This document shows positions 4,647-34,766 of a stretch of DNA of 64,000 nt, piece by piece. The notes below the pieces were generated by a model, which saw only the letters and a program-made list of their open reading frames with translations, was not told the origin of the DNA and searched no databases. Position 1 is the stretch's first letter. Every line of letters starts with the position of its first letter. The position numbers and the translations under genes were made by a program. Origin of the DNA: Squalus acanthias (lineage: Eukaryota); the NCBI GenBank assembly GCA_030390025.1, contig CM059431.1, forward strand, positions 158,164,001 through 158,228,000, read 5' to 3'.

Positions 4647-4755
4647 AAAAGATATACTTGTTTTAACCAACAGGTAAATTAATATCGTAGCAACCTAAAG
4701 AAAGGCAGAAACCATCACATTGTGAAACATTTACTCACTAGGAAACAATACATAC

Positions 4756-4821
4756 CTTGCAGAAATGCTGGGACTGTTGCTTTCACGTCACTCCATGTTG
4801 CATCTCCTGGCAAATTGGAAC
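4756..4821 (-). CDS. CARD/NLR-like gene short linker exon (expected to precede a NACHT exon)
   Basis: Acceptor atttcaatag|GT, donor CAAG|gtatgt; 66 bp, phase 1 to 1. Encodes (G)SNLPGDATWSDVKATVPAFLQ, in frame with B2. Confidence 0.72.
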
Positions 4822-4902
4822 CTATTGAAATCAATGTCCTCAGATTCAGTATTGTGGACTTCTTGGGGTTTCTTTTAACTTTTACCGGTAGTGTGAATTG
4901 CC

Positions 4903-5690
4903 TGGATGTTTGCAACTGCAACAACACTCAATAAGCTTGAAGCCTTCCAGAACAAAGCCTTCCACCTGACCCACACCCCATCCACCACCTCATACATTCA
5001 CTCCCTCGACAAATGGCGCACAGTGGATGCAACGTGTACTGTCTACAGGATGCACTACGGCAACTATTTCCCCTGGCTGGGGAGTCTAGAACCAGGGGTC
5101 ACAGTCTCAAAATAAGCAGTCTGCCATTTAGGACTGAGATGAGGAGAGATTTCTTCACTCAGAGGTTGGTGAATCTTTGAAATTCTCTACCCTAGAGGGC
5201 TGAGGAGGCTCAGTAGTTGAGTAATTTCAAGAGAGAAATCAATAGATTTTGAGATATTCAGGAAATCAAGGGATATGGGGATAGTGCAAGAAAGTGATGT
5301 TGAGATCGAAGATCAGCTATGATCTTATTGAAAGGCGGAGCAGGCTGAGGGGCCGAATGGCCTACTCCTGCTCCTATTTCTTATGTTCTTATTATGTTCT
5401 AACTCGCCAAGGCTTCTTCGACAGCACCTCCTAAACCAAAAACATCCACAACCTCGAAAGAAAAGTGCAGCAAGTCCATGGGAACACGACCATGTCCAAG
5501 TTTCCCTGTAAGTCACACATCATCCTGACTTGGAAATGTATTGCTTTTGCTTCATCATCGCTGGGTCAAAGTCCTGGAACACCCTCGCTAGTAACACTGT
5601 GGGATTACCTCCACCACATGGACTGCAAAGGTTCAAGTTGAAGGCCTAGCACCACCTTCGCAAGGGCAACTAGGGATTGGGTAATAACGC
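4903..5690 (+). mobile_element. 3' fragment of a second CR1-group (Zenon-like) LINE family, interrupted at 5066-5400
   Basis: TLNKLEAFQNKA..HSLDKWRTVDATCTVYRMH; homologous to minus-strand copies at 51724-52740 and 54912-60830. Confidence 0.75.
5066..5400 (+). mobile_element. CR1/HER1 3' fragment nested in the older LINE
   Basis: RT C-terminus, 3' UTR and tatgttct tail; aact duplicated at 5062-5065 and 5401-5404. Confidence 0.85.
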
Positions 5691-6204
5691 ATCAACTACT
5701 GTCTGCCTAATGCTTGGCCCATCTGATATAGACTATTTTACACTAACAAAAAAATTTTAAAATTCTGGTATTAATGTATTCAAAGTTGGCGTAAATTTAA
5801 CTTTACTTGATGTTGCAAAATTGACGCTTATAGGACCGGTCGCCCATTATGCACCACACACGCTAATCGTTTCCACTGAAGTGAATGGAAGAAAAATGGG
5901 GGTGGGGTGAGGGGTGTGCGGGTAGGGTGTATATTATGCGGACAATAAGCAATCGCCCGTTTTTCACCATTACACAAGTTTAAAATTATCCCCAACATTT
6001 CTTAGAAAACGAAATTTAATGTCCCTGGGTTAAGATTTGACATGAGCGAGGACACAAAATAGGTACTATCGCTTAGGTCGCCTGTTATATGCTCCGCCGG
6101 ATATTGAGTTCCATTGAGTTCAATAGAACATATTATCAGGCGTGTCATATAATGTTCGACAATTAGTGAGAATACATTTGTGTCAGCATTTCATCTGAAT
6201 AAAA

Positions 6205-7090
6205 AACAACACCGGGAAAGAACTCAACCTTTCAATCTGCAGAAGGCGACTTGCCCATGAACCCCACTTAAAATACCTGGGCGTCACCCGTGACAGGACA
6301 CTATCGGCCTCATCTCAACAACACCGGACAAAAAGTAAAAACCAGGGCGAACCTGGTGCGGAAACTCACTGGAACGTCATGGGTGAGCACGGCCAGAAGA
6401 TTGTGCACTACAACAGTGGCCCTATTTAACTCTTCGCAGAATACTGCTCTACCTCATGGTCCCGCAGCGACCACACAAAGATCGTGGATGGACCGATAAA
6501 CGCTGGCATGAGCAGTGTGTTAGGAACGCTCAATTCTATTCCAACTGAGCGGTTCTCGTTGCTTACCCAGACTCCCCCGCCTGCCATTCGTCATGATGCT
6601 ACTGTGCTCCGTGAGATGGAAAAATCATGAGCAGCATTGCCCTTTCCATTCATTAACACTTGAAAACTCTACCACGAAGTGCTTAAAATCGAGTCGACCA
6701 TTCTGGGAAACAGTAGAAATATTCATGCAGCTGGAATCAATCCACTATCGTGGGACGCATGCAACATAATGAACCATAGCCTCATCACTGACCCAACAGC
6801 GAAGGTCCTTGGTTTCGACCTCCCTCGAAGACAGTGGACAGCGTCAACAGAATACGCGCAGGGCATGGACGATGCGAACACCTGCTCCACAATTGGAAGA
6901 TGAAGGACTATACGAAATGGAACTGTGGCCAAGAGTCCCAGACCATGGAGCACATTGCACCAACCTACTCACTAACATCTATTGCAGTAGGCACCTCATT
7001 TCTGCACTCGGCATCTCAGGATGTCATCGAGTGGGTAGTCAAACGAGACATCCCATCATAAGCTTTTCCCCTCATACAAAACAACAAAAA
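6205..7090 (+). mobile_element. Vingi/Ingi-like LINE 3' fragment
   Basis: KYLGV, NLVRKLTGTSW, GFDLPRRQW, NRIRAGHGRC, CGQESQTMEHI motifs; ends in a CAA-rich tail. Confidence 0.7.
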
Positions 7091-7164
7091 AAAGATATTC
7101 CCTTTATGCGAAAGTAGTAGTTGTACGATCCCGAACCTGTCGAGTTTCACCCGCTTGTAATATG

Positions 7165-10100
7165 AGAACTAATAGTAAGATTGGGCTGAGTCAACATGGA
7201 TTTATGAAAGGGAAATCCTGTTTAACAAACCTATTGGAGTTCTTTGAGGATGTAAGTAATGTAATAGACAAAGGAGAACCGGTAGATATGGGGTATTAGA
7301 ATTTTCAAAAGAACTTCGATAAGGTCCCACACAAGAGTTTGGTGAACAAAATTAGGGCACATGGAATTGGGGGTAATATACTAGCATGGATAGAGATTGG
7401 TTAACAGACAGAAAACAAAGAGTATGGATAAACGGGTCTTTTTCAGGATGGCAGGCTGTGACTAGTGGGATACCGCAAGAATCGGTGCTTGGGCCCCAGC
7501 TATTCACAATCTTTATCAATGATTAGGATGAAGGGACTAAATGTAACATTTCCAAATTTGCTGACGACTCAAAGCTAGGTGGCAGTGTCAGTTGTGAAGA
7601 GGCTGTGAAGAGGCTTCAAGGGGATCTCTACAGGCTCAGTGAGTGGGCGAGAACATGGCAGTTGGAATATAATGTGGATAAATGTGAGGTTATCCACTTT
7701 GGTAGAAAAAACAGAAATGCAGAGTATTTCCTAAATGGTGAAAGATTGGGAAATGCAGATGCTCAAAGGGTACTGGGTGTCCTTGTACATGAATCATTGA
7801 AACTGAATGTGCAGTTGCAGCAAGCCATTAGGAAGGCAAATGGTATGCTGTCGTTCATTACAAATGAATGTGTGTACAGGAGTAAAGAGGTCTGACTCCA
7901 ATTATATTAGGCCTTGGTGAGAGCCCACCTGGAGTACAATTTTGCTATGCTTACTTAAGGAAGGATATACTTGCCATAGATGGAGTGCAACAAAGGTTCA
8001 CGAGATTGATTCCTGGGATGGCGGGAATGTCGTATGAAAAGAGATTCAGTAAACTAGTCCTTTATTCTCTTGAATTCAGAAGAATGAGAGGGGATCTCAT
8101 TGAAGCATACAACATTATTACAGGCTTGATAGGGAATTTGCTGGGAGAATGTTTCCCACGGCTGGGGAGTCTAGAACCAGGGGCCACAGCCTAAGGATAA
8201 AGGGTAGGCCATTCAGGACTGAGATGAGAAGAAATTTCTTCACACAGAGGATGGTGAACCTTTGGAATTATCTGCCCCAGAGGGCAGTTTAGGCTCAGTC
8301 ATTGATTATATTCAAAACAGAAGTCGATAGATTTCTGACTAGTAAAGCCATCAAGGGATATGGCGATACATAGATACATAGATACATAGAAGATAGGAGC
8401 AGGAGAAGGCCATCCGGCCCTTCGAGCCTGCTCCGCCATTTAATGAGATCATGGCTGATCCTCCAATTCAGTATCCCGTCCCCGCCTTCTCTCCATAACC
8501 CTTAACCCCTTTTGCCTGTAGAAATATATCTAATTCCCTCTTAAATATATTTAATGAGCTGGCGTACACTGCCCTCTGTGGCAATGAGTTCCACAGGTTC
8601 ACCACCCTCTGAGTGAAGAAATTCCCCCTCATTTCTGTCCTAAATGGTTTAGCCCTTATCCTTAAATTATGTCCTCTAGTTCTGTTCTCACCCGCCAAGG
8701 GAAACATTCCTTCTGCATCTAGTCTGTCTAGACCTGTCAGAATTTTATACACTTCTATGAGGTCCCCTCTCAATCTTCTAAACTCCAGTGTGTACATCCC
8801 TAAATTACATAGTCTCTCCTCATAGGTCAATCCCGCCATTGCTGGTATCAGCCTGGTGAATCGCCGCTGCACCCCCTCCATGGCAAGAACATCTTTCCTC
8901 AGATGAGGCGACCAAAATTGTACACAGTACTCGAGGTGTGGTCTCACCAGTGCCCTGTACAGCTGCAGCAAGGTATCCCTGTTCCTGTATTCCAACCCTT
9001 TTGCTATGAAGGCCAGCATACCGTTTGCCTTCTTGAACGCCTGTTGCACCTGCATGCTCGCCTTCAGTGACTGGTGTACAAGAACACCCAGGTCTCTCTG
9101 TACTTCCCCCTCTCCCAATTTATTGCCATTTAAATAATAATTTGCCCTCCCGTTCCTGCACCCAAGGTGGATAACTTCGCACTTGTCCACATTATAGTGC
9201 ATCTGCCATTTATCCGCCCAATCACCCAGTCTTTCCAAATCGCTCTGGAGCTTCCTGGTCTCCTCCTCTGAGCCCACCCCCCCTCCTAGTTTAGTGTCGT
9301 CTGCAAATTTGGAAATGCTGCATCCGACTCCCTGATCCAGGTCATTAATGTAAATTGTGAACAGCTGGGGATCCAGGACAGATCCCTGTGGTACCCCACT
9401 TGTTACTGCCTGCCATTCAGAAAATGAGCCGTTTATTCCAACTCTCTGTTTTCTATCTGACAGCCAGTTCTCTATCCACGTCAATACTTTCCCCTTTATC
9501 CCATGAGCTTCAATTTTCCATGCTAATCTTTTATGTGGGACCTTATCGAAGGCCTTTTGGAAGTCCAGGTACACCACATCTACTGGCTCTCCCCCATCTA
9601 TTTTACCAGTTACTCCCTCAAAAAATTCCAATAGATTAGTCAAGCACGATTTACCCTTTGTAAATCCATGTTGACTCTGTCATATCCTGTCCCCATTTGC
9701 TAAGTGCTCCGCTATTTCATCCTTAATGATGGACTCCAGCATTTTGCCCACAACTGATGTAAAGCTTACAGGTCTGTAATTACCTGCTTTTTCCCTACCC
9801 ACCTTTTTGAATAGTGGGGTAACGTTAGCTACCCTCCAATCCATGGGCACTGTTCCCGAGTCTAATGAATTCTGAAAAATCATACTTAGTGCATCCGCTA
9901 TCTCTAGGGCCACCTCCTTCAGTACCCTAGGATGCATGTTATCAGGCCCTGGGGATTTGTCCGCCTTCAATCCCTTTAGCTTCCTTAACACCATATCCTT
10001 AGAGATATTGATTTGCGTCAGTTCCTCCTTTGCCAATGTCCCTATTTTTCCCGATATCCCAGGGAGGTTTTTTGTGTCTTCCTTCGTAAAGACTGACCCA

Positions 10101-11008
10101 AAGTATGCATTTAGTTGGTCTGCCATTTCCTTATTTCCCGTTATATATTCCCCCGTATCTGACTGCAATGGACCAACTTTGGTTTTCACCAGTCTTTTCC
10201 TCTTGATATACTTATAAAAGCTTTTGGAGTTAGTTTTTATATTTTCCGCCAGCTTGCTTTCGTAAGCTATTTTGCCCCTCTTGATTAAGCCCTTTGTCCT
10301 CCTTTGCTCTATCTTAAACTGTTCCCAATCTTCCGCTCTGGCGCTTTTTTTGGCTATTTTATACGCCCTATCTTTGGATTTTATGCTGTCTCTAATTTCC
10401 CCTGTTATCCACGGTTGAGTCACCTTTTTAGATTTCCTTTTATGCCAGATTGGTATAAACAATTTTTGCAATTTTGTCATTCTATCTTTAAATGCTTGCC
10501 ATTGTTTATCTACCTCCAGTCCTCCCAGGAACGTTGTCCAATCAGACCTACTCAGTTCCCGTCTAATGGCATCATAATTCCCCTTGTTTAAATTCAGGAC
10601 CTTAGTCTCTGAGACAATTTCTTCGCTCTCCATTTCGAGCGAGAAATCGATCATGTTATGATCGCTCTGACCCAAGGGTCCCCGTACAACAAGATTACTA
10701 ATTAGTCCCTTCTCATTGCACAGTACCCAGTCCAATATAGCCTGTTCCCGAGTTGGTTCCTCGACATATTGATCCAGATAACCATCCCTTAAACACTCAA
10801 GGAACTCCTCCTCCTCATTATTTTTACTGATTAGGCTAGTCCAATCTATATGTAAGTTAAAGTCACCTATGATGACAGCTGTGCTCTTAGGGCGGGTGAA
10901 TGGAGTTGAGGCAGAAGATCAGCCATGATCTCATTGAATGTCGGAGCATGTTCAAAAGGCCGAATGGCCTACTCCTGCTCCTATTTCTTATATATTTATG
11001 TTCTTATA
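7165..11008 (+). mobile_element. Older CR1 RT/3' fragment split by the young insertion at 8365-10889
   Basis: QHGFMKGKSCLTNL to the RT C-terminus at 7165-8364; the 3' UTR resumes at 10889 and ends in a tatgttct tail. Confidence 0.85.
8365..10889 (-). mobile_element. Young 5'-truncated CR1 LINE, near-identical to 56004-58524
   Basis: ORFs 9680-10735 and 8468-9643 are separated by one GGA>TGA stop; FADD RT motif; (TATGTATC)n tail; constant 47635 bp offset to the full-length copy. Confidence 0.95.
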
Positions 11009-11057
11009 AGAATCAAAACAAAACCCTTGTATCATGAGATGGGAATCAGAACAATAC

Positions 11058-15940: not shown

Positions 15941-18168
15941 CTGAAAAGAAAATCTTCTTAAAACATTCAGTTGTATTGTTAACAAACAAGCTTGCACGGG
16001 GGTTACGAAAAAGTCTACGAATCTGAAGCATTATATATGAAACAGTTCGGGATCTTTTGATTTCCAATATAATTTACAATTTTTGGGGGCAATAACATCC
16101 GGTGGAACCATAATAAACTGACATGACAGTTGGAGTGGGTCTAATTGGTTAGCACCTTCAAAGAGCCTGCAAAAGGACGATGGACCAATTGCCCTCCTTC
16201 TCTGCTGTATGCTTCTACGATTATATGAATCAATGACAAGGCGATACTTGAATTAACAGCGCATCCGATAGTTTTAACACGGATTTAGAAATGGGGCCAT
16301 TTGAAGACCAAACTAGCTAGCTAGGATGCAGGATTAACATAGTGATATGGGGAAAGCTACACTAAAAATATAAGAGACTAATGTGAGAGTTTATACACCA
16401 AGAAGGGGCGCACTCGTTGAAGATTATAGCAAAAATATGATTAGTTTTAATAGGTCTGAATTTTCGGATTCTGGGCTGACTAAGCCGCAAATCTACCCAG
16501 CCAGTGCTGCAATGGACAATGACATTTTGAGAGTCCCCAGGGCGGAATTACGACAGGTGATGTAGAAATTAATCGTGATGGCGATCGTAATAGCAAAAGC
16601 AAACACTACAAATGCAAGAACGTTGTTTGAGAAGATGATTGAATTAAGACTGGAGTAGAAGTGATCACAAAAATTTGATTTTTCTCTTTAAGGGAGCATT
16701 CGCTTGTATCATTGGGATGAGCAAGTTTTTAAAGGAAAATTCACACACATCTGATGAGACAGCTCTGAGCAGAGGTGAGCAGGTATCGCTGCAGAAACAG
16801 GAATAGAACAGCTGAAGCATAACCAATAAATGTAACTCGCATAGATGTAGAAAAGCTGAGAGCATAGGCATATTTCGATTCCAATGCTTCAGACTAAATC
16901 TCTGTTTAAATAAATGCCGGGCCCCAAATGGCGGAGCCAAGAAAGGTTAAACCTGGAAGCAAGTCGGAAGTTGGCGGGCGAAACGCAGCAAGATTGACTA
17001 TTGGAGTGGCGATTGAATTTCAATATAAAATGAACCGATTAGGGGCAAGGTTGCAGATACAATGCGGAAATTCTGATTGGAGGCGAAGCTATAAATTCAA
17101 GGTAAGAGTTGGAGTTAGAGGTGAGGAGACAGATGCAGTCGAAGCGTTGGGAAAGGAAGGGAGCGACATGAACAAGGGATTATTTAGTTACTCGGCGAGA
17201 AGGATGTATCATAAGTCGAGCAAAATGAGGGAAAGAACGATGATTGATGTTTTGCTCAAAGTTAGGCTGGACAACAAAACAATGAGCATTAATGTGGTCT
17301 GATCTGTAAAACAGCTTTAACTGAACGTCCTCAATTATAATAAAGAGCTCCCTGTAAAACAGATGTCCATGAACATCGAAGTGCAGTGCCCGTTGGTGAT
17401 GAACACGGAAGTCGATCAAACGGTACGTTCAGAAGAGTGCTGGTTCCGGTCCGTTAGGTTATGGGGGACATATTTGGGCAAAACTAGTGTCTGAGAGCCA
17501 CCCGAGCGGAAATTAGGTAAGAAAGTGGACATCTCAGCAACCATCCTCTCCCCTCATGTAAAATATCGCAGAGGGAGAGATGGCCCGTCTAATCATTGCG
17601 CTGAGCAATTCGCCTTCTTCAGGAAAGAAAGGGCAAGAAAGCGTAAATCAAATTGGTTGGGCGATAAATTCGGCTCTGCAGCACTGGCTTTTTCCGCGAG
17701 ACGGTGCCGTTTTGTGTCGAAAATGGCGCCTGCATCGGGCGCGCACACTTCTGGCGCGTACTGCGCCGAACGCAATCTAGGTGGGGGCTGTACACCGGGC
17801 GTTAGGAGCGTACAGCAGAAGTATGATGAGTGCACAAATCCTGATGTCTATCAGCGCTCAACGTCGATTTGAAGTCAGCGCTGCTATTTTTGTCCTCAAC
17901 GCTGGAAGTAACGCCCAGTGATAACCTCCGAGAGCTGAACATGCCTTCACCATTGGCCAGGACCCCCGGCAGCGTTGTTTCAATGGATTAGCAATCACTC
18001 TAAGCTTAGTTGCTGATTGATTTGTACTGTTTCTGTGTAAGTTTGTGGAACTGTTTGGAACTTTCTTGAGTTGTTTAAAGTTGGTGATGTGACAGAGATT
18101 GGAGATGGAAGTGGAGAAAACCTGGCTTCTGACTTAAACGGTTCAGGTCAGACCACGTGCTCCCAGTC

Positions 18169-19280
18169 ATGGGAGCTCTAGTTGTCATCCACCTTGAACT
18201 GCAGGACGGCAGGGAGATGGAGCAGAGGCAGCAAAGACGAGGACAAGCTGCTCGCAGAGCGGTGAGGAAGAGGGTGGGAGAAGGGCTCTCAGCAAATCTC
18301 TTACCTCAGTCTGAGCAAGGAGCAGTGTGTGAGGCGACTCTGCTTTACGAAGAATGTGCTCACAGAACTGTGCCAGCTCTTACAACCAGACCTGCAGCTT
18401 CACACCAGGGCAAGGACAGCGCTGCCAGTGGCTGTGAAGTTGACTGTGACCCTGAGTTTCTTTTTGTCGGGAACTTTCCAGGCTGGAGCAGGCGACATAT
18501 GTAACATCTCAGTGTTCGACATTCACTACTGCATAAGAGAGTTGACAAATGCCAGGATAGGGGCTTCATTGTCACCCCTCTAAAGAGAGAAGCATTCGGC
18601 ACATGCAGGTGCCTTTGTCAGGATAGCGGGCTTCCCCATGGTGCAGGGTGCAATCGACTGCACGCACGTGGCTTTGCGGGCACCACTTTTAAATTCTCAT
18701 ATGTACTGCAACTGCAGATGTTTCTACTAGCTGAATGTGCAGTTGGTGTGTGACCATGCTAAGCGTATCATGATGATGTATGCCCGCTATCCTGGTAGTA
18801 GGCATGATGCTTTTATTCAGCGCAGTCCACTATTCCCGCAGTGTTTGAGCCTCCATATCAGAACAGGGGATGGCTGCTGGGCGGCAAGGGCTATCTCCTT
18901 ACCACCTGTCTCATGACTCTGCTCTGCAATCCAACCACACTTGGGCAACATGCGTACAATGAGAGCGATGCTGCCACACAAAACATCATAGAGCAAACGA
19001 TTGGGTTGCTCACGCAACGGTTCCACTGTGTGGACCGTTCTGGAGCAGCACTGCAGTGATCAACATCGTGGTCTGCAACATGTTCCCAAACCTTGCCATA
19101 ATGAGGGCATAACACTTGGCACCAGGCCTACGGTGACCAACTGAGGAGAAGGAGGAGCAGATGGAGGAAGAAGCAAAAGAGAAGGACGAGGAATAAATTG
19201 AATAGGAGGAAGTGGAATGGAGGAGGCAAGCCAGACTGCCCCTTTCTGCCCGGGCAGTCCGTGATCGATTCATCTGACTG
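18169..19280 (+). pseudogene. Harbinger DDE transposase remnant (HARBI1-like)
   Basis: RRLCFTK..LQPDLQ..TALPVAVKLTVTLSFFLSGTFQ, GFPMVQGAIDCTHV, GWLLGGKGY, IIEQTIGLLTQRF; stops and frameshifts. Confidence 0.88.
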
Positions 19281-19483
19281 CGGTTCCTGTGAACACAACC
19301 CCAATTCTATATTCACCAATAGTCCCAGTTCTTACCATCCTTCTGCTATGGACCATCGCAGCGTCTGTTTCGCCACAATGTAGAAATGAAAGGCACCACC
19401 TAACAAGCACTCCAATTCAACTTTATACATCAATCTATCCAAAATTAAAAAAACAGTCAACTAATCACCCTTGCACATTCGAT

Positions 19484-21345
19484 TAGTGCCTGTCTTCTAT
19501 GTGCCATTGCCTGTGCTAGTGCTCCTATGAAGTGCTACCCAGTGCCTTCAGCATGGCTGGTGGAAGGCTGCTGACTTACAGTGGGCGAGATTGCAGATAG
19601 CCTTGCTAGACGGCCTCTTGCAGCTGTCGGTCTAGATGGCCCGGCTATAGTCTGCACCAACTCGGCGCCTGCAGTCTGGGAAGGCTGGCTGACTGGCCAA
19701 CAGCAAGGGTACTGGCGGACTGGCAGTGGTGGGAGAACGAATGCTGTCATTCTCAGAGAGGGAAGTGTGTTCGTCCTGCAAGGAATCGCTGCCATTCCTC
19801 TGCGGCGTTGCCTCGGCAATCCTCAGCAATCTGTTGGAGGAGAGGTTGCCGGACCGCTGTGACATCCTGCAAGCTGCTTTCCACACTAGTAAACACAACG
19901 ACTATGGCACCAGTTTGAACTTGTTTGGCAGCAAGCTGAACCTCCATGAGAGCAGTGTGAAAATGCATAACAGAAGTCTGAGCCTCCACATCAGCACTCA
20001 GACGTTGGGTCGTTCCGCCTGTGCTGCAATGGAAGCTGAGACATCGGTCATCAGGCAGTGCATCATGGTTGGGTCCACAAGTGCGGTAATGGAGCTGACC
20101 ATCAATGCCATGCTGGAATTCATGGGCTTCAAGCTCGGCACAAAGCCCTGTGCAAGGTTTGTGCCGGCCTCCTCCATACTCCTTGACCTTGCACTCAGGC
20201 TCCTGGCAGGCATGAAGCATTTCATTATGCATAAAATCAGCTTTCTTCTGTAGGCCACCTCATCAAGGTTCTCATCTAGTCCTCTGCAGCAGAACTCGTG
20301 TGGGACATCGCCCTCCGAGGAGCTGGCACCCGCGCTACCCTTTCCCCTGGCCCTGGCTACAGGGCACTCGAACCCGGTGGCTCATCACGTGCAGACACTC
20401 TGTCTAACCTATCCTCTAAAGTACGCAGTGTCTCGGTATCTGAGCTGCTGGCTGTGAGTGTGAAATCGATTGTCGTTGTGTATTCATGATCACTGCTTTC
20501 CTGCTGCTCCACCAGTACCTGGCCAGGTGGCAGTTCTTGGCTATGTGAAAGGAGAAAGGCACAAGTCTAAGGTTGTGGTGAAGGGAGGAGCAAGAGGTGC
20601 ATGCTTACACCATCTGCTGCTGTACGTCAGAAGAGATAGTATGATGAGGTGGAAGTGCGAAGTGGGAAGGATTATAAATTATGAGGATACCATCATCTTG
20701 GATTGCTTCAGCCCCACCACTGGCCACGGGCGCAGCGATTGCCCTCCCAAGAATGCCCAGCACCGTCTCCTCCACGGGGATTCTGCAAGCGCCTGTGACC
20801 CTTCGGGTAGAACCTGCTAGCTTCGATTGTGTGCCACGTTGATCTGCTAGAGAAAGGAAGTTTGTCAGTGAGTGAGGTGATGTGCCTGTCATGATTGAAT
20901 AGCTGACTATGTGCAAACTGTGAGATGTGGATGTGAATCTTCCAGCAGAGGTAAGTGTTTGAGGGTGGGATGAAGCTATGAAGGTGAGGTATGAGTCGTG
21001 TTTGGTAGCAATTGTTGGTAGATGAGTGATATGTTATGGTGCATTGAGCCGTGTGTGCAGCTAATGGTGCAGATGGTGAGATAGGCATTTGAAATTAATT
21101 CACTGAACGTGACCCCTAGTTTTATGTCATTAAACTTCTTGCTGCTCTGCAGCCAGGTCCTCGCGGCGGCACTGCGGGTATTGACAGCTGTGGCTATCTG
21201 CTCTCATTGGCGTTTTCAGTTTTGCCTGAGGACATCCTGGACCCCGATTGAAATAGGTCATCTCTCCTCCTTTCCACCTCCTGCACCATGGCCTCCAGTG
21301 CTGCATCAGAAAACCTTTCTGCAGGCTCTACCTACTGTTGTGGCA
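19484..21345 (-). pseudogene. Harbinger second gene remnant (Myb/SANT-like DNA-binding protein, intron-containing)
   Basis: Minus strand near 21310 reads FSDAALEAMVQEVERRRDDLF, later KKFNDI; coiled-coil-like tail at 19750-20250. Confidence 0.7.
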
Positions 21346-21552
21346 TTTGTAGTTGTTTTGTACTTCCTCCCCCAGCCAGTTGAATGAGCTGCTGTGAGCA
21401 GAATGTACCTCTCCTTTAAAAGGTGCAGATTGCCTTTAAGTAGTGGAGGTCAGCTTCCATTGGAACTGAACTCGCACAAACCTGAGCACCCTGCTGAGCG
21501 TTCATCCACTCAACTGCGCATTCAGCGCTGGGCTGAACGCTACAATCATATT

Positions 21553-22193
21553 GGAGCGGATTTTCCGATCGGAGGCTTCTTACTGGCGGATGCATCCGAT
21601 GGGAAAAAAACTCTACGCACTTACCTCTGCCTCCGTAGATCTCGAGACTTCCGATCATGGGCCTCTCCACTACAAAATGCGCAGAGGCCCAGGGATCCTG
21701 GGGCAAATGCGGTTCGGAAGCGTCCCTGGGATCACGTGGGCCATTGGGAACCAATCAAAGAAGGGAATCTCCCTTCACCCTTTTGACAGGTCTCTCCGCA
21801 GAGATCTGTCAAAAGTATGAATGGGGATCACTTCAAAAACACAGTTAAACATTAAATATTTTTTTAAAAAGCATCACTATTTAAAATTAGTTCAAATTAC
21901 ATTAAATTAAATATTTTTAACAATAATGAAAATTTTAACGGAGCTAAAAATAAAATTAGCTTTTTTAACAGGCGTAAAATCTTTTAAGGTTTTCAGCGGG
22001 CGGAAGTTGTGCAGAGAGTGGAACTCTGCCCGCGGAGGCCCTTTTCCGGGGGCAGGGGGATGATCTGTCAAGAGAATACGGAAGTGCTGGGTTTTAGCGC
22101 ATGCAATCCGCATGCCTGAAACCGGCACTTGCGATGCCCCTACCGATGCGTACGCACCTCGTACGCACCCGTGGGCGTCGCAATATCCGGCCC
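21553..22193. mobile_element. Harbinger-type MITE nested in the Harbinger right subterminal region
   Basis: TIRs ggagcggatttt / aatatccggccc; 3-bp target-site duplication (TSD) att at 21550-21552 and 22194-22196. Confidence 0.72.
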
Positions 22194-22372
22194 ATTAATT
22201 AGCAGGTAGTACGAAGGTCGCGTGCTGCCTACATTCCTTTCAATGTACGCGAGTTGTTCGCACTTTGCGATCCCTGCCCCCGTTTTCGGCGGCAATCCAA
22301 TTTTTAGCCCATTAAGTCAAGTCAAATCATCGTAGGTTAAGATAGATCCAATTCCATTTATGTCAGACGTAC

Positions 22373-23512: not shown

Positions 23513-24804
23513 CTGATTATAACAAGAATATCATTAGAGATAATGAGGCTGAATTTCTCTTTCTGAGCTGGCTAAGTCACAAATTTCCCCAGCCAGTGCA
23601 CAACGGACAGTTGTATTTTAAGAGTCGGCAGGGCGGAGGTACAACACATAACGTAGAAATAAATCGTGACGCCGATCATGATAGCAAAAACGAAAGCACG
23701 AATTGCAAGAGAGTTGTTTCACAAGATGTTGTAATTAAAACTGGCGTTGAAAAGATCCCAAACGATGATTTTGTTTTTAAGAGAACAATCAGTTGTATCA
23801 GCGGGATGAAACATTAATAAGGTAAAATTCACACACATCTGATGAAACCGCTTTGACCCGCGGCGAGCAGGAAGCGCTGCACAAAAACAACAGGACAGTG
23901 TAAGCACAATCAAAAAATATAAATCCCGTAGACATAGGAGAGCTGGGAGCAGAGATACATTTCGCTTGCAATACTTCAGTCTAAATCTCGGTTTAAGTAG
24001 ATGCCTGGTCCCAAATTCCGGAGCCAAGAAAGGTGAAACCGCGACACAAATCGGGCATTAGCGTGAAAAAAAACCGAATAAGATTGAAGATTGCAGTGAC
24101 GGTTGGAAAGGATTATAACAGTTAGAGATTAGCGGGGAATATGCAGATGCAATGCGAGAGTTCTAATTGGAGGCTACACTACAAATTCAAGGTAAGAGTT
24201 GGGGTTAGAGGTGCGGAGGCACATGTAGCCTAATTATTCGAACTGGAGGGGAGGGACTTGAATAAGTTACTCGAACAACGAGATTCTGGAAAAGTAACGG
24301 ATAGAATTATGATTGACGATTTGCTCAGTTCTTCTAGACAAGAAAATAATGAGCATTAATGCGGTCTGATATGTAAAACAACTTCTCCTGAATAACTTCA
24401 ATAAGCTTCCAGTGAAACAGATAGTCCTGAATATCGAAGTGCAGTTGCTGTTGGTGATGAACACGGAAGTCGACCAAATGCCACTTTCAAAAGAGTGCTG
24501 CTTCCTATTCACGGGGCTGCCTCCGCATTAGGTTCGTGTGAAAATTCGGACAAAATTAGCGTCTGAGAGGCACCCGAGCGAACATTAGTTAAGGCAGTGG
24601 AAATCTCAGCAATCATCCTTTTCCCTCATGTAAAATGCCGCAGAGGGAGCGGTGTCCCGTGTAACAATTGCGTAGTGCAATCGCCTGCCTCAAGAAAGAC
24701 GGGGCTAGGAAGCGTAAAATAAACTGCTCCTATTTCAACAATAGAATTCGAGTCTATTCTGCCATATCTTAAGATAGATCCAGTTCCATTTATGGCAGAC
24801 ATAC

Positions 24805-24974: not shown

Positions 24975-26154
24975 CTATAAAATACAAGTGGAACAAAAAA
25001 CATAGGAGCATTTACCATAATCGAAGATATTTGGAAGTTGCACTTCGAAATATCTTCCACTACAACAAAATAATTCATAAAAAGGATCGGCTAAACTGTA
25101 CTCTGGTGAAAAGGAATACACGTCAGCTTACTGTATGCAGTCGAAGCATCATCATAAGCAGACTGCAGGGTGAAGGCTTAAAGCACAATCCTTGAATGTA
25201 TCAACGCTGGCCCAGCAATTGGATCGTACTGGCTGCTGCAAACCTGGCACGGGGCAGGGGGTGTAATTCTGACGTCCTGATATAAATTAAAACGTGCTGA
25301 ATTGAATGGGCAGCAACGTTTACATCGGTCCCGATTTATATTTCCATTGCTTATATTCTCTCGTACTTTCGATTCGATATCGCCCTATTTGCACTATCAC
25401 ACGAAGCCAAAATTAAGGTGGTACGATCCCTGCGGCGTAAAGGTCGGCCTGACACCCACCCGATATTGGGGTTCGGGCCTCGTTTATACCGGACCGGCGA
25501 GGTGCAGTCACCTGCTGCCTCTCCCCAGGCATCGTGGCCGGTTTCGACGATGGGAATGTCGACGGTCCCGGAAGGGGAGACTGGGAGAGGTGAACGTGAG
25601 GGGGGCTTCCGGTTGAAGACCAGTGGGAAGTGATCGGCAGAGGGATGCAGGGTGGCGTGAAATAAGTGAGGGAGGCAACGAAAGGGAGTGTGAGAGAGGC
25701 AATCGGTTGTAGTGGGCGGCAATGGCCCGCTGTTTTAACATGGAGCCAGAAGGAGAAATGCGCAACACATTGGCTCCAAATTCAGGTAGGTATTGAAACA
25801 AACGGATCTTTTGATGGGGGTCTGCAGAGGTCCCTTTCCCGTTCGGCTGTCAGATGAATCGAGTTAACCAGAACTTCAGGCGTTGCTGACATTTCCCCAG
25901 AGAAAGGAAACGGACAACCAATGGCTGAACAAAGATTGAGTGTAACATTTGGCAGAGGAACAAGTCGTGAATTCTGAACCCTTCTTTAGCATTTAGAGCG
26001 TAAGTTACCTCACTGGTATAGATATGATTTAACTGTCTCAGATAAGCCGGAATCCAGTACAGAAAGAGAAGAGAATGAATACAAAGATCAACGTTTACTG
26101 GATTGAATTTTAATAATGGCAGATATATAAGTTCAGCACAAAGAGTAATCTCAC

Positions 26155-26548: not shown

Positions 26549-29216
26549 CGGAGATAGAGAGGGGGATAAAAAAGGAGGGGTGGGGGGTCGCAATATTGAT
26601 TAAATAATCAATTACCGCTGTGAGGAAGGAGGATATCTTAGAAGGATCATCAAATGAGGCCATATGGGTTGAAGTGAAAATCAAAAAAGTGGCAATCACA
26701 CTGCTGGGAGTGTACTATAGACCTCCGAACAGTCAGAGGGAGATAGAAGAGAAATATGTAGGCACATTTCTAAGACATAAAACGATAGGACAGTAATAGT
26801 ATTCGAATTCAACTTCCCCAATTTTAACTGGGATAAAATTAAAGTGAAAGGCATCGAGGGTGCAGAATTTTTAAATGCATTCAGGAAAACATTTTTAGCC
26901 GGTATTTAGCAAGTCCAACAAGAGAGGGGCGGTTCTGGACCGACGTTTAGGGAATGAAGCTGGACAGGTGGAAAAGGTATCAGTGGGAGAGCATATTGGT
27001 GGTAGTGATCATAATTCAGTTCAATGTAGGGTAGTTATGGAAAAGGACAAGGATGGACCAGGAATAAAAGTTCTCAATAGGGGAAAAGCTAATTTTACTA
27101 CGCTGAGAGGTGATTTAACCAAAGCGGACTCGAGACAGAAAATTGAAGGTAAATCAATGTCAGAGCAGTGGGAGGCATTCAAGGAGGAGATAGTGAGGGT
27201 TCAGAACAAGCATGTTCCCTTAAAGAAAAATGGTGAGACTAACAAATCTGGAGATCCGTGCATGTCAAGGGGCATACAGGGTAGGATAAAGAGAAAAAGG
27301 GAAGGTTATGACAGATACCGAGTACTCAATACTGCAGAAAGCCGAGAGGAGAATAGAAAATTCAGGGGTGAAATCAAAAAGGAAATTAGGAAAGCAAAGA
27401 GAGGTCATGAAAAAATATTGGCAAGTAAAATCAAGTAAAACCCAAAGATGTTTTATAAATACATTAGGATCAAAAGGATAACTAAAGTAAGAGTAGGGCC
27501 TATTAGGGACCATAAAGGTAAACTGTTTGTGGAAGCGGAAGACATGGTTATGGTTCCTAATGAATACTTGGCGTCTGTTTTAACAAAAGAGAGGGACGAT
27601 GCAAACATTGCAATCAGGGAGGAGGAGTGTGAAATATTAGATGAAATAAACATAGTGAAAGAGGAAGTATTAAGTGGTTTAGCATCTTTGAAAGTGGATA
27701 AATCCCCGGGCCCGGATTAAATGTATCCCAGAATATTAAGAAAAGTGCAGAAGAAATAGCAGAGGCTCTGACCATCATTTTCCAATCATCTCTGGCTACA
27801 CGTGTGGTGCCGGAGGACTGGAGGATTTGGAAGTGGTACCTTTGTTTAAAAAGGGAGAAAGGGATAGAGCGAGTATTTACAGGCCAGTCAGCCTAACCTC
27901 AGTAGTGGGAAAATGATTGGAAAAAATTCGGAGGGACACGATAAATCTTCATTTAGAAAGACACAGATAAATCAGGGATAGTCATCATGGATTTGTTAAG
28001 GGAAGGTCGTGTCTGACTAACTTGATTTAATTTTTTGTGGAGGTAACAAGAGGGGTCGACGAGGGTACTGCGTTTGATGTAGTCTACATGGATTTTAGAA
28101 AGGGTTTTGATAACGTCCCGCACAAAAGTACCAAGCTGGATCCAAAATTGGCGCAGAGGCAGGAAACAAAGGGTAATGGTCGAAGGGTGTGTTTATGACT
28201 GGAAAGCTGTTTCCAAAGGATTCCGCAGTGCTCAGTACCGGGCCCTTTGATTTTCGTGGTATACATCAATGATTTGGACTTGAATGTAGGAAGTATGATT
28301 AAGAAGTTTGCAGATGATACAAAAATTGGCTTGATAATGAAGAAAAAAGTTGCAGACTGCAGGAAAATATCAATGGACTGGTCTGGTGGTAAGAACAGTG
28401 GCGAATGGAATACAATCTGGAGAAGTGTCAGGTAATGCATTTGGGGAGGGCTAACAAGGCAAGGGAATGTGTTATAAATAGTAGGACACTGAGAAGTGCA
28501 TAAGATCAGATGGACATTGGAGTGCATGTTCACAGGTCCCTGAAGGACAGGATGTTAAGGTGGATAAGAAGGCATACGGGATACTTGCCTATATTAGCCG
28601 AGGCATAGAATATTAGAACAGGGAGGTTGTGCTTGAACTGTATAAAACACTAGTTAGGCCGCAGCTAGAATACTGCGTGCAATTCTGGTCACAACATTAC
28701 AGGAAGAATGTGATTGCAGTAGCGGGGGTGCAGAGGAGATTTATGTGGATGTTGCCTCGGCTGTGGAATTTTAACTATGAGGAAAGATTGGATAGACTGG
28801 GGTTGTTCTCTTTGGAACAGGGGCGGCTGAGGGGAGACCTAATTGAGGTGTATAAAGTTATGAGGGGCCGAGATAGAGTGGATAGGAAGGATTTATTTCC
28901 CTTAGCAGAAGGTTCAATATCCAGGGAGCACATATTTGAAATAATTGGCGGAAGATTTAGAGGGGATTTGAGGGGAAATTTCTTCACCCAGAGGGTGGTG
29001 GGGGTCTGGAACTCACTGCTTGAAAGAATGGTAGAGGCAGAAACCCTCACCACATTTAAAAAGTACTTGGACATGCATTTGCAGTGCCGTAACCTACAGG
29101 GCTACGGAGCAAATCTGGAAAGTGGGATTAGGGTGGATTGCTCTTTGTCGGCCGGCACGGACAAGATGGGCCGAATGGCCTCCTTCTGTGTTGTAAATTT
29201 CTATGATTCCATGATT
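26549..29216 (+). mobile_element. 5'-truncated decayed CR1 (APE endonuclease + RT)
   Basis: YYRPP, SDHN, KSPGPD, FADD and RT C-terminus; ctatgatt tail; interrupts the duplicated intron. Confidence 0.92.
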
Positions 29217-29870
29217 TTATGAAAAGCTATTTTTTCTTTAAGAAACCCATCACTTTTATCATCCGGATGAAAGAGTTATAAAGTAAAATTCGCACACATC
29301 TGATGACACAATTCTGAACAGAGGTGATCAGGAATCGATGCACAACAAACAGGACAATTGAAGCGAGATCAATAAATGTAAATGCCTTAGACACAGGCAA
29401 GCTGGGAGCACAGGTACATTTCGCTTTTAATTCTTCGGTGTAATTATCGTTTTAAATCAATACATGGCCCCAAATTCCGGAGCCGAGAAACGTGAAAACG
29501 GCAGCAAGTCAGAGAGTAGCGGGCGAACCAAATTAGATTGAAGATTGAAGTGACGATGGAGATAGTGATTAGCAGCGAGGAAGCAGATACAATCCGAGAG
29601 TTCTGATTGGAGCCGAAGCTGCAAATTCAGGGTAAAAGTTGGGGTTAGAGGTGAGGAGGCAGTTGCAGTATAAGTGTTGGGATTGGAGGGGCGGGACGTG
29701 GCCAAGGGATTATTTAGTTACTCGACCCGAAGGGTGTATCGTAATTCTAGCAAAATAAAGAATATAAATATGATTAAAGCAATGTCCAATGCTATTCTAG
29801 ATAACAAAACAATGAACATTAAGGCTGTCTCGTCTGTAAAGCAGATCTTCCTGAATATCTTCAATGATGT

Positions 29871-32800
29871 GTCCGGAGCGAAAAGAGCCACGGTACAGTG
29901 AGTATTTAAACTCACTTTTGCGTGCTTTTTTCAGAGGCTTACCAATCTCGCAGACCGGCGGCCGTGTTCCAGAACCACTTCACGATTCAAAAAGTGACGC
30001 GGGCAAAAGGAAGCAGCTGATTGGCTGAGTACGGCCAGGTGAGTATTTATACAACTCTATAGTTTGACAGTTAAGGTTAATAATGTATAAAGTTTTGAAG
30101 ATCTTAATTTGGTGGTTATAGTTTTGAAGGTCTCAGTGTAGTGTAATTTGTGGTATTGATTTGCTTTAATTTAATTTAAATTAATTAAAGAATAAGTAAT
30201 GGCAGCACAGGTCGTCCCCGTGGCATGCTCCTCCTGCATTATGTTGGAAATCAGGGACACTTCCTGTGTCCCTGACGACCATGTGTGCGGGAAGTGTATG
30301 GAGCTGCAGCGACTGGCAGACCGCATTGCAGCGCTGGAGTTGCGAATCGATACATACTGGAGCATTCGCGATGCTGAGGACGTCGGGGATATCATGTTTA
30401 ATGAGTTGGGCACACCCCAGGTAAAGGCTGCACAGGCAGGAAGAGAATGGGTGACCGCCAGGCAGAGTAGTAGGCGCAGGCAGTTAGTGCAGTTGTCCCC
30501 GGTGGCCATCCCCCTCTTAAACAGATATGCCACTTTGGATATTGTTGAGAGGATGGCTTAACGGGGGAAGGCAGCAGCAACCAACATCCTGGCACCATGG
30601 GTGGATCTGCTGCACAGGACAGGAGGAAAAAGAGCGGGAGATCTATAGTGATAGGGGATTCTATTGTAAGGAGAAGAGATAGACGTTTCTGCGGCCACAA
30701 ACGAGACTCAAGAATGGTATGTTGCCTCACTGTTGCAAGGGTCAAGGATGTCTCAGAGCGGCTGCAGGGCATTCTGGAGTGGGTGGTTGAACATCCAGTT
30801 GTCGTGGTGCATATAGGTACCAAGGATATAGGTAAAAAGCAGGATGCGGTCCAAAAAGTTGAATATAGGGAGTTAGGAGGTAAATTAAAAAATATGACCT
30901 CAAAGGTAGTAATCTCAGGATTGCTACCAGTTCCACGTACTCGTCAGAGTAGAAATAGAAGGATATTTCAGATGAATACGTGGCTAGAAGAATGTTGCAA
31001 TGGGGAGGGATTCAAATTCCTTGGACATTGAAACCGGTTCTGGGGAAGGTGGGACCAGTACAAAGTGGACGGTTTGAACGTGGGCAGGACCGGGACCGAT
31101 GTGCGCGTGGGAGTGTTTGCTAGTGCTGTTGGGGAGGGTATAAACTAAAATGGCAGGGGGTTGGGAACCTGTGCCTGGAGAGAGAGGAAGGGGTAGCAAG
31201 GATAGAAGCAAAAGACAGGAAGGAGAAAAGAAAAAGTGGAAGTCAGAGAAATCAAGGGTTTAAATCAAACGTGAACACAATAAATAATAATTCTAAAAGC
31301 TCTAAGAGTGTTAAAAAACAAGCCTGAAGGCTTTGTGTCTTAATGCGAGGAGCATTCGTAATAAGTTGGATGACATAGCTGTGCAAATAGATGTAAACGT
31401 ATATGATATAATTGGGATTACAGAGACATGGCTCCAGGGTGACCAAGGCTGGGAATTGAACATCCAGGGTTATTCAATATTCAGGAAAGACAGGCAAAAA
31501 GGAAAAGGAGGTGGAGTAGCATTGCTGGTTAAAGAGGAGATTAACACAATATTAAGGAAGGATATTAGCTCAGCTCTGATGATGTGGAATCTGTATGGGT
31601 AGAGCTGAGAAATACCAAGGGGCAGAAAACGTTAGTGGGAGTTGTATGCAGACTCCCAAACAGTAATGCTGTGGTTGGGGATGGCATTAAACGGAAAATT
31701 AGAGATGCGTACAATAAGGGGACAGCAGTTATCATGTGTGACTTTAATCTACATATAGATTGGGCTAACCAAATTAGTAACAATACCGTGGAGGAGGAAT
31801 TCCTAGAGAATATATGGGATGGTGTCCTGGACCAATATGTCGAGGAACAAACTAGAGATCAGGCCATCTTCGACTGGGTATTATGTAATGAGAAAGGATT
31901 AATTAGCAATCTTGTTGTGCGAGGCCCCTTGCGGAGGAGCGATCATAATATGATAAAATTCTTCATTAAGATGGAGAGTGAAGTAGTAGTTGACACAGAG
32001 ACGTGGGTACTGAATTTGAATGAAGGAAACTACGATGGTATGAGGCGCGAGTTGGCTAGGATGGATTGGGGAATGTTACTTAAATGGTTGACGTTGGATA
32101 GGCAATGGCAAACATTTAAAGATCGCAAGGATGAACTACAGAATTTGTTCATCCCTGCTCGGCATAAAAATAAAACAAAAAAGGTGACTCAACCGTGGCT
32201 AACAAGGGAAATTAGGGAAAGCATAAGCTCACAGGAGAGGACATATAAATTGGCCATAAAACGCAGCAAACCTGACGATTGGGAGCAGTTTAGGATTCAG
32301 CAAAGGAGGACAAAGGGATTAAATAAGAGGGGGAAAATGGAGTATGAAAGTAAGCTTGCGGAGAACATAAAAATTGACTGTAAAAGCTTCCATAGATATG
32401 TGAAGAGAAAACGATTGGTGAAGTCAAGCGTAGGTCTCTTGCAGTCAGAATCAGGGGAAATTATAATGGGGAACAAAGAAATGGCAGACCTATTAAATAC
32501 ATACTTTGGTTCTGTCTTTACAAAGGAGGACAGAAATAAACTCCCAGCGATGTCGGTGAACATAGTATTTGATGAGTGGGAGGAACTGAATGAAATCAGT
32601 ATTTGTAGGGAAATGGTGTTTGGGAAATTGACGGGACTGAAGGGCGATAAATCCCCAGGACCTGATAATTTACATCCTAGGGTAATTATAGAAGTGGCCC
32701 TTGAAATAGAAATGCATTGCTGTTCATGTTCCAAAATTCCATAGACTCTGGAACAGTTCCCATGGATTGGAGGTTAGCTAATGTAACCCCACTATTTAAA

Positions 32801-34213
32801 AAAAGGTGGTAGAGAGAAAACGGGGATTATAGACCGGGAAGCCTGGCATCGGTAATGGGGAAAATGCTAGAGTCCATTATAACAGCAAAATTATAAAAAC
32901 AGTGACAGAATCGGACAAAGTCAACATGGATTTACAAAAGGTAAATCATGTTTGACTAATCTACTGGAATTTTTTGAAGATGTAACTGATGGAATAGATA
33001 AGGGAGAAACAGTGGATGTGGTGTATTTGGACTTTCAGAAGGTTTTTGATAAGGTCCCACATAAGAGATTAGCGTGCAAAGTTAAATCACATGGGATTTG
33101 GGTGTAAGGTACTGTCTTGGATAGATAACTGGTTGGCAGACAGGAAGCAAAGAGTTAGAATGAACGGGTATTTTTCCGAGTGGCAGGCAGTGACTAGTGG
33201 TGTACCGCAGGGATTGGTGCTAGGACCCCAGTTATTCACAATATATATTAATGATCTAGACGAGGGAACTAGATGTAATATTTCCAAGTTTGCAGACGAC
33301 ACAAAGCTGGGTGGGCGTGTGTCCTGTGAGGAGAATGCAGAGAAACTCCAGCATGATTTGGACAGTTTGGCTGATTGGGCAGATGCATGGCAGATTCATT
33401 ATAACGTGGATAAATGCGAGGTTATTAACTTTGTTGGGAAAAACAGGAAGGCAGATTATTATCTGAACGGATTGGGAAAAGAGGAAGTGCAACGAGACCT
33501 AGGTGTCCTTGTGCACCAGTCCCTGAAGGTAAGCGTGCAGTTGCAGCAGGCTGTTAAGAAGGCAAATGGTATATTGGCCTTCATAGCGAGAGGATTCGAG
33601 TACAGGAGCAAGGATGTCTTGCTGCAGTTGTACAGGGCATTGGTGAGACCACAACTTGAGTATTGTGTACAGTTTTTCTCGCCTTATCTGAGGAAGGATG
33701 TTCTTGCCGTGGAGGGAGTGCAGTGACGATTCACCAGACTGATAATTGGGATGGCAGGAATGACGTATGAAGAGAGGGTCGAATGGGCTTATATTCGCTA
33801 GAGTTTAGAAGAATGAGAGGGGATCTCATTGAAACTTATACAATTCTAACAGGACTAGACAGACTAGATGAAGGATGGCTGTTCCCGATGGCGGGGGAGT
33901 CCAGAACCAGGGGTCATAGTCTAAGGATAAGGGGTAAGCCATTTTGGACTGAGATGAGGAGGAATTTCTTCACCAGCGAGTGGTAAACCTGTAGAATTCT
34001 CTAGCACAGAAGGCAGTTGAGGCCGATTCATTAAATATATTCAAGAAGGAGATAGATATATTTCTTAAGGCTAATGGGATCAAGGGATATGGGGAGAAAG
34101 CAGGGACAGGGTACTGATTTTGAATAATCAGCCATGATCGCGTTGAATGGCGGAGCAGGTTCGAGAGGCTGAATGGCCTACTCCTGCTCCTGTCTTCTAT
34201 GTTTCTATGTTTC
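29871..34213 (+). mobile_element. Full-length decayed CR1 (5' UTR, ORF1 zinc-finger/SGNH esterase, ORF2 APE-RT)
   Basis: ORF1 pieces from 30199 (CxxC..CxxC, GDS, IGT); ORF2 pieces about 31320-34117; (TATGTTTC)n tail. Confidence 0.93.
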
Positions 34214-34596
34214 GATGATATTTCGGAGCTTCTCTTACAGCAGATATTCCCGAATATCGAAGTTTTGGTGACGGACACGAATTTCGACCAAATACCTCTT
34301 TCAGATTAGTGCTGTTTTCGAATCACGGAGTTGCCTCCGCATTAGGTTCGCGGGGCAGATAGGACAAAATTAATTCCTATGAGACAACCAAGCGAAAATA
34401 GAGAAGGAAGTGAAAATCGCATCAATCATCCTTTTCACTTATGTGAAATGTCGCAGAGTGAGCGCTGGCCCGTGTAACCATTATGCAGTGAAAGTCACCT
34501 ACTTCAGGAAAGAAAGGGTGATAAAGCATAAAAACCTGCTTATATTTAAACAATAGCAGTCTAGTCAATGCTACCGTAGGTTAATGTCAGACATAC

Positions 34597-34766
34597 CTCA
34601 TATTCTAGCCGAGTGAAAGCATTTTTATGAAGCCAATTTGGATTGATACCGTCCACAGATTCTTCCATAGGTTCAAGTATTGTACCCGGATACAATTCCG
34701 TATCTTTGGATTGCTGAGTATCATTGACTGTTGACACAGTTAGTTCAACTCCAGTAATATCATCCA
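34597..34766 (-). CDS. CARD/NLR-like gene exon A3: degenerate first half of a CARD-like domain
   Basis: Acceptor ttttatag|TG, donor GAG|gtatgt; 170 bp, phase 1 to 0. Encodes DDITGVELTVSTVNDTQQSKDTELYPGTILEPMEESVDGINPNWLHKNAFTRLEYE; paralog of 24805-24974 and 22373-22542. Confidence 0.65.

Follow-up and report, generated by a model that had tools for sequence, protein, structure and literature searches.

Within a 64,000-nucleotide (nt) stretch of the Squalus acanthias genome, here called the window (C7:158,164,001-158,228,000, C7 being contig CM059431.1), lies the 5' portion of an NLR gene, carried by nine exons on the minus strand. All nine are confirmed and continue, without a break in reading frame, into an undamaged NACHT-LRR core situated just beyond the left edge of the window, their splicing being deduced from sequence. 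On balance, we regard the gene as an intact-frame shark/ray NLR with a predicted disordered N-terminal tail and two likely CARDs, of which the present copy has probably been silenced recently because the exon likely to hold its start codon has been scrambled. The anatomy itself, which is common to this reading and to those in which the gene is live or its tail serves as bait for pathogens, is held with considerable confidence. The window lies approximately 1.6 Mb from the end of the 159.8-Mb contig, in a genome of 3.7 Gb.

Exon structure, NACHT-LRR core and gene family

The initial annotation had proposed nine minus-strand exons with GT-AG sites, chained phases and a stop-free frame, and all nine were recovered with the lengths originally given (Table 1): AG and GT flank 9/9 exons, the phases run 1-0-1-0-1-0-1-0-1-1, and the exons sum to an open frame of 1,395 nt. 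When the downstream NACHT exon, two LRR exons and last exon are added, the frame of the resulting 13 exons stays open for 1,144 codons up to the first stop. On the minus strand of the window, AG..GT segments of such lengths are open in the required phase in 12-32% of cases each, and jointly at a probability of about 1e-7, which is too favourable a figure, as it counts each duplicated exon as an independent event; the stronger evidence for the exons lies in their homology and conservation across paralogues.

A NACHT exon had been predicted to the left of position 1, and one was located there after 32 further bases of intron. Its product matches the Pfam NACHT (E-value 3e-36), winged helix (PF17779, 1.8e-14) and HD2 (PF17776, 2.7e-18) domains, all above cut-offs. 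The two LRR exons match our own LRR profile weakly (E-values 4.5e-5 and 4.7), and matching exons are present in paralogues h and i. In the exon that follows the second LRR exon the frame stops after 13 codons, and no FIIND is found between the LRRs and this stop, both statements depending on the choice of last exon. The gene accordingly possesses the features by which NLRs are recognized, namely a NACHT domain with Walker A, winged helix and HD2, and C-terminal LRRs. Human NLRP3 provides the nearest solved NACHT (E-value 1e-51), and the NACHT of the window gene is closer to those of NLRPs than to that of NOD2 (4e-23). NLRP3 has a pyrin domain and a long LRR region alongside its NACHT, whereas in the window gene CARD-type modules precede the NACHT and the LRR region is very short; one or more CARDs likewise precede the NACHT in NOD2 (tandem CARDs) and NLRC4 (CARD-NACHT-LRR).

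Comparison of the NACHT exon with its best 120 homologues places the gene in the shark/ray 'NLRP3-like' NLR group: 114 of these carry shark or ray species names, the remaining 6 are frog proteins, and identity to the shark and ray sequences is 44-51%. Elasmobranch models named 'NACHT, LRR and PYD domains-containing protein 3-like' (P0014-P0120) likewise possess a two-exon module, a linker and then a NACHT exon (48-51% identical to that of the window gene), and likewise a short LRR region. These models probably correspond to the NLRP-related family whose expansion in the whale shark and rapid turnover are described in one report (PMC8455134). A comparison of the E6 protein with the genome yielded 432 candidates, of which all 150 that were scored matched, so that E6 is one member of a very large family. 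Within this group, tandem modules are no rarity: one module is present in 96 of the 120 homologues, two in 11 and three in 1, such that 12/120 have two or three. Models P0001-P0013, from rays, sharks and frogs, contain two or three NACHT domains per chain and may be fused models of tandem genes.

Table 1. Features of the NLR gene. Positions are those of the window unless prefixed by C7.
Feature	Position	Strand	Description
E1	34766-34597	minus	170 nt; repeat 1, an A0-type half-CARD that has decayed; phase 1 to 0; AG/GT, open; 13.6 bits on family module profile
E2	26302-26155	minus	148 nt; spacer S, copied from the long start exon of the family (its 3' 148 nt); phase 0 to 1
E3	24974-24805	minus	170 nt; repeat 2, an A0-type half-CARD that has decayed; 12.9 bits on family module profile
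E4	23512-23365	minus	148 nt; second copy of spacer S; acceptor at duplication junction
E5	22542-22373	minus	170 nt; first half of putative CARD1; A0 type that keeps a module-like pattern; 30.9 bits, the highest among 23 A0 copies scored
E6	15940-15769	minus	172 nt; second half of putative CARD1; Pfam CARD E-value 0.0045, below curated cut-off
E7	14044-13866	minus	179 nt; first half of putative CARD2
E8	11229-11058	minus	172 nt; second half of putative CARD2
E9	4821-4756	minus	66-nt linker exon; phase 1 to 1; chains in frame into NACHT exon
Duplication end point in E5-E6 intron	16422-16425	minus	AATC, common to the start exon just before S
Middle piece of start exon	36237-36413	minus (gene orientation)	80-82% identical to long exon of paralogues
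Inverted 3' piece of start exon	36410-36647	plus	S part, donor and ~113 nt of intron; 4-nt overlap with middle piece
Candidate substitute start exon (speculative)	36375-36444	minus	spans inversion junction; ATG, 23 codons, phase-1 donor GTCAGA
Intron 9	1-4755	minus	continues 32 bases beyond left edge of window to NACHT exon
NACHT exon	C7:158,163,968-158,162,249	minus	phase 1; 1,720 nt, open; Walker A GVAGIGKT
LRR exons	C7:158,153,680-158,153,594 and C7:158,153,413-158,153,222	minus	87 nt and 192 nt; ~8.6 kb past NACHT exon, phases chained
Likely last exon	from C7:158,152,035	minus	also present in paralogue i

Origin of the repeated N-terminal extension

The gene's N-terminal extension (E1-E4) is, on sequence comparison, no array of CARDs but a repeat of 106 codons composed of a decayed half-CARD (A0) and the 3' end of the start-codon exon (S), and it sets the gene apart from its family homologues, 0/120 of which match the S profile. 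E1 and E3 fail as complete CARD modules in that no B half follows them, they score approximately 13 bits as opposed to 31 for E5, and prolines occupy helix positions; they are decayed half-modules, which have likely lost the ability to fold. Thus, while the exons of the half-CARD-and-spacer layout originally proposed are real, two of its half-CARDs are decayed and its 'spacer' is a piece of the start exon. Similarly, the multi-module N-terminus is unusual for the family, as had been suggested, but it is not unique to this member, for the repeat is present at approximately ten loci of the local C7 cluster and longer CARD arrays lie adjacent.

Genome-wide DNA searches returned 25 matches for the A0 exon with its flanks (two of them flank-only) and 40 for S, all located at 153.9-159.7 Mb of C7; the catalogue compiled from the fetched loci contains 25 A0 and 41 S copies, with an S match at 155.06 Mb lying outside it. 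Among the loci examined, the A0+S unit is absent or present in up to four copies, and full modules number between one and at least nine. S forms the 3' end of a long exon (~570 nt) in 14 copies and is an internal exon in 21. Among the 14 long exons, 12 have an ATG 126-129 codons ahead of S and 11 are open over 140 codons before it. The intron upstream of the 21 internal copies is the A0-B intron, and the match ends at the same point in every repeat examined. In the window gene, homology of the E4-side intron to the E5-E6 intron ends at 23515/16422. At this junction AATC is common to the intron and the long exon, and the next AG is contributed by the exon. Paralogues k and m retain an unduplicated A0-B intron.

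We infer the following order of events. The ancestral gene would have comprised a long start exon, the half-CARD A0 and the half-CARD B, in that order, and one tandem duplication would have brought the A0-B intron up against the final 148 nt of the start exon, the two being joined at the AATC microhomology. With the intron supplying a pyrimidine tract and the exon an AG, S would have emerged as a new in-frame exon. Unequal crossing-over would later have changed the number of A0+S units, and A0 copies separated from B would have lost the CARD pattern. On the module profile, E5, an A0 that still adjoins its B exon within an open gene, reaches 30.9 bits and the 20 A0 copies followed by S score 7.6-22.1, while two other A0 copies, followed by B or by a B-S hybrid, score 7.4 and 5.8.

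Two additional elements were considered and rejected: a 31-nt micro-exon ahead of A0, the acceptor of which is lost in unit 1, and a duplicated promoter, represented by a GC-rich stretch at 35,390-35,900 and 25,480-25,780, that would make each unit its own gene start. The GC-rich stretch occurs in the S-A0 intron of paralogues.

Further arrangements were observed elsewhere on C7 and in its fetched loci. At C7:155,427,000-155,491,000, four A0+S repeats are followed by at least six full modules, with no start exon within 23 kb upstream and no NACHT within the stretch read. The whole long start exon is tandemly duplicated twice and three times at C7:154,865,000-154,867,300 and 155,664,400-155,668,300, respectively, each copy being open. 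A hybrid exon at L022:6576-6746, with B half-CARD sequence in its 5' part and S in its 3' part, marks a second independent junction. Finally, nine tandem two-exon CARD-type modules (~161 + 199 nt by inspection, AG/GT, open) occupy the plus strand at C7:158,025,760-158,089,490, 75-138 kb to the left of the window, and are followed by two broken NACHT-LRR copies in the opposite orientation at ~158.10 and 158.13 Mb.

When the S profile was run against 1.84 billion representatives, four matches were obtained; P0121, P0122 and P0124 were set aside as unrelated tandem-repeat sequences and P0123 was kept. The latter is a bamboo-shark (Chiloscyllium plagiosum) model, matched at an E-value of 2e-6, of LOC122544084 (P0123/P0125; XP_043539035.1, XP_043539032.1), in which S-like segments lie at 567, 672 and 776 with a period of 104-105 residues, A0-like segments follow the second and third of these, and one family module is present. 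It differs from the window gene in that the repeat comes after a partial NACHT and LRRs and the CARD-like module is C-terminal, and it may be two genes fused into one model or may have another layout. Since this model carries a related repeat, the A0+S repeat is likely older than the lineage of the window gene. An Atlas search with the P0125 repeat region gave no usable match. A tail placed after an upstream NACHT-LRR, as in the bamboo-shark model, was rejected for the window gene because a search of the 88 kb upstream yielded no NACHT or LRR; against such a layout, too, is the likely last exon, with a stop, that follows the LRRs of paralogues c and f.

An analogy may be drawn with the zebrafish NLR-B30.2 family, for which exon-encoded N-terminal repeats have been described (PMC4852459). 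These are likewise clustered, expanded NLRs whose N-terminal peptide repeats vary in number and are shuffled between NACHT groups; they differ in having repeats of ~30 residues and B30.2, whereas the repeat described here is 106 codons long and has a half-CARD and part of the start exon as its sources. Literature searches, which left subscription journals mostly uncovered and supplements outside their scope, returned nothing on a half-CARD repeat in shark NLRs. What is new is the traceable origin of the tail, this kind of NLR being already known.

Selection on the repeat and character of the tail

The ratio of nonsynonymous to synonymous substitution rates (dN/dS), calculated by counting over pooled copies, is 1.18 for A0 and 0.97 for S; likelihood estimates are 0.86 and 0.79, neither different from 1. 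A class of sites under purifying selection is supported in the repeat and a class under positive selection is not (M2a vs M1a, P 0.17 and 0.52; 22 and 18 paralogous copies of ~50 codons, hence low power). Comparison with neutral simulations run on the trees of the copies, which ignore CpG effects and gene conversion, reveals a deficit of lesions: among 25 A0 copies, an in-frame stop is present in 2 (15.3 expected) and a broken splice site in 1 (14.4 expected). Among the 21 internal S copies, which were picked partly by acceptor context and so favour intact sites, a stop is present in 2 as opposed to 8.7 expected (P 0.04-0.06, weak as a test alone) and a broken splice site in 0 as opposed to 11.7. 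Gaps that are not a multiple of three make up 2/7 of those in exons and 26/32 of those in flanking introns, and identity is 0.76 in exons and 0.64-0.70 in flanking introns. These data suggest that selection has kept the frame and splice sites of the repeat while its amino acids drift.

E1-E4 have a net charge of -22 and fall on the disordered side of the charge-hydropathy line, and they are predicted to form a disordered acidic tail. Most likely, such a tail would act as a flexible, length-variable acidic extension, of which the frame matters and the sequence hardly does.

The likely CARD modules

Consistent with the initial proposal that a two-exon CARD-like module and a short linker resemble the N-termini of shark NLRs, a profile built from 70 family modules of homologues matches E5+E6 (E-value 6.5e-32) and E7+E8 (1.6e-28), and gives weak half-matches only on E1 and E3. 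In the AlphaFold2 model of P0021, a ray homologue with three such modules, the predicted local distance difference test score is 61.5 for the whole model and mostly 70-90 per 10-residue block within the modules. The third of these modules aligns with the NLRC4 CARD (Z 11.9, root-mean-square deviation 1.9 A over 87 residues), followed by the ASC and caspase-1 CARDs (Z 11.2-11.3) and then by those of ARC and NOD1; a Foldseek search with the whole model gave only NACHT-LRR matches among the top ones listed. Atlas CARD clusters score 0.89 for the module, which serves as a lead only. Pfam detected no pyrin domain on any of the nine exons, and the top structural matches of the module are CARDs. Word-based protein searches with E7 and an A0 alignment returned nothing at E-values up to 10, which is weak evidence. 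As such, the window most likely encodes two CARDs (E5+E6 and E7+E8), the fold being predicted for the ray homologue. As for the comparison with CARD models that had been recommended at the outset, both modules match the family module profile, and a Pfam scan that covered half-domains only gave E6 by itself a score under the curated cut-off.

By analogy with NLRP3 and NLRC4, a trigger would allow the NACHT of family members to bind ATP and oligomerize, and the oligomer would in turn cluster the CARDs, which would seed filament formation by the CARD of an adaptor or of an inflammatory caspase.

A scrambled start exon and an altered Walker B motif

Because E1 begins in phase 1, an upstream coding exon is required. 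The exons of the original gene model stand, but that model overlooked both the disruption of this start exon and an alteration of Walker B. The start exon is recognizable upstream of E1 in two pieces of opposite orientation (Table 1), and its 5' part, containing the ATG, was not found within 88 kb upstream. A genome search, in which 40 of 460 candidates were scored and the rest were mostly repeat matches to the query's edge, likewise gave no orphan 5' piece among its C7 matches, and for the region conserved upstream of the start exon of paralogues the 88 kb upstream of E1 yielded no match. Paralogue b is the copy with which the inverted piece groups (97/87), while the NACHT is 84% identical to those of paralogues h and i, which suggests that the window gene may be a recombinant. 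A dispersed repeat with at least 40 copies (~80% identity) adjoins the rearranged exon at 35885-36144.

The Walker B motif reads LIIFDGLHEL in the window gene and DGLDEF in paralogues h, i and p. Genome pattern searches returned DGLHE once and DGLDEF 299 times, and among 126 motifs of homologues DE is present in 121 and HE in 0. The sequence LIIFDGLHE departs from the extended Walker B pattern hhhhDGxDE of a normal NLR ATPase, a departure that concerns activity and not membership in the NLRs. The changed residue aligns with the second Asp of the NLRP3 Walker B, the position at which PMC10966137 places D303, with D303H classed as constitutively active. Carried over to the shark protein by analogy, the Asp-to-His change would bias the protein, if made, towards an active state.

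Silenced or live

Recent silencing is favoured by the two-piece start exon whose 5' part was not found in the assembly, by the uniqueness of DGLHE, and by NACHT dN/dS values of 0.43-0.56 to the two closest paralogues as compared with 0.24 between those two. Several observations weigh against it or against its components. Firstly, no stop, frameshift or broken splice site is present in the 13 exons, which, at rough lesion rates, would limit neutral decay to less than ~1% divergence; with no lesion downstream, any genuine silencing is young. The NACHT dN/dS remains under 1, E5 retains the module pattern, and a possible substitute start exists at 36375-36444. Secondly, a local assembly error at the 5' end is possible. 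Thirdly, the long exon may in some cases be something other than a start exon, as one paralogue's copy has no ATG and the bamboo-shark repeat lies after LRRs, and the S stop test carries the limits given above. Lastly, with regard to the CARDs, no single exon reaches the Pfam cut-off (E6 alone scores 17.4 bits as opposed to 23.9 for PF00619, only half-domains having been scanned), Pfam CARD is detected at E < 0.1 in 4/19 B exons, exon profiles run against solved sequences found no CARD, and the fold is predicted for P0021 rather than for the joined exons of the window gene itself.

A tentative alternative, to which we assign a lower but appreciable probability, is that the gene has the same anatomy and is live, starting from a substitute first exon (for example, at ATG 36444) or from an ATG in E1, E3 or E5, and encoding a two-CARD NLR with a shorter tail. 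The lesion-free exons and the NACHT dN/dS accord with this, as do the in-frame ATG with its phase-1 GTCAGA donor, which also ends two S copies, and two other repeat-bearing loci at which, likewise, the 16-23 kb upstream hold no start exon. The donor of the candidate is weak, however, and belongs to one of seven ATG-plus-donor candidates between 34767 and 38000; the unmatched region upstream of the start exon and a Walker B unique among ~300 pattern matches also speak for a silenced copy.

It is unlikely that the tail is a bait, a disordered, fast-changing segment that would be cut by a microbial protease to free a repressed, trigger-ready NLR in the manner of the NLRP1/CARD8 tripwires, the mechanism of which is described in PMC10249858. 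A disordered composition, variable copy number, dN/dS near 1 with the frame kept, and a related repeat in the bamboo shark would suit such a role, and disordered N-termini play it in CARD8 and NLRP1 according to the same source. That source also states that the tripwire requires FIIND self-cleavage, and the window gene has no FIIND before its stop; moreover, positive selection was not detected, and in this layout N-terminal degradation would reach the CARDs first. Least probable of all is that E1-E4 are untranslated remnants of partial duplications with only E5 onwards in use, for although dN/dS is close to 1, exon identity barely exceeds that of flanking introns and several repeat-bearing loci carry lesions elsewhere, neutral drift would predict many more stops, frameshifts and broken splice sites than are seen, and the bamboo-shark model translates a related repeat.

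Mobile elements in the window

The long open frames of the window are of the long interspersed element (LINE) type. A LINE at 56005-59995 (minus) has two open reading frames (ORFs), an open ORF1 of 316 aa (GDSL-esterase-like) and an ORF2 encoding endonuclease and reverse transcriptase (988 aa). Intron 8 harbours a truncated copy of this LINE at 8370-10889 (minus), and the 98.9% identity of the two points to a young family. Two LINE insertions (26551-29222 and 30179-34210) lengthen the E1-E2 intron from ~1.3 kb to 8.3 kb. The E5-E6 intron contains a 4.7-kb insert (17656-22336) that is missing from paralogous introns; first taken for a Harbinger element, it holds five ORFs without a Pfam match, and no terminal inverted repeat was found.

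Implications for the shark and ray NLRs

The reach of these findings is limited in that the copy may be dead and the gene is known from DNA alone. Improbable, though of consequence if true, is a scenario in which the subfamily has built an acidic regulatory tail of variable length out of half a CARD and part of its own start exon, the tail in this member restraining a receptor left on by the Walker B Asp-to-His change; such a gene would be a natural counterpart of autoinflammatory NLRP3 D303H and a cleavage- or charge-gated sensor without a FIIND. With regard to annotation, Pfam misses the N-terminal domain of the shark/ray NLR expansion, and automatic names say 'PYD'. The window gene and paralogues h and i, which have a normal Walker B and are without the repeat, offer a test pair for shark inflammasome work. 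Finally, the locus provides a base-level account of the origin of a new repeated protein segment, in which a duplication junction would have made a splice site and a folded half-domain would have decayed into a likely disordered tail.

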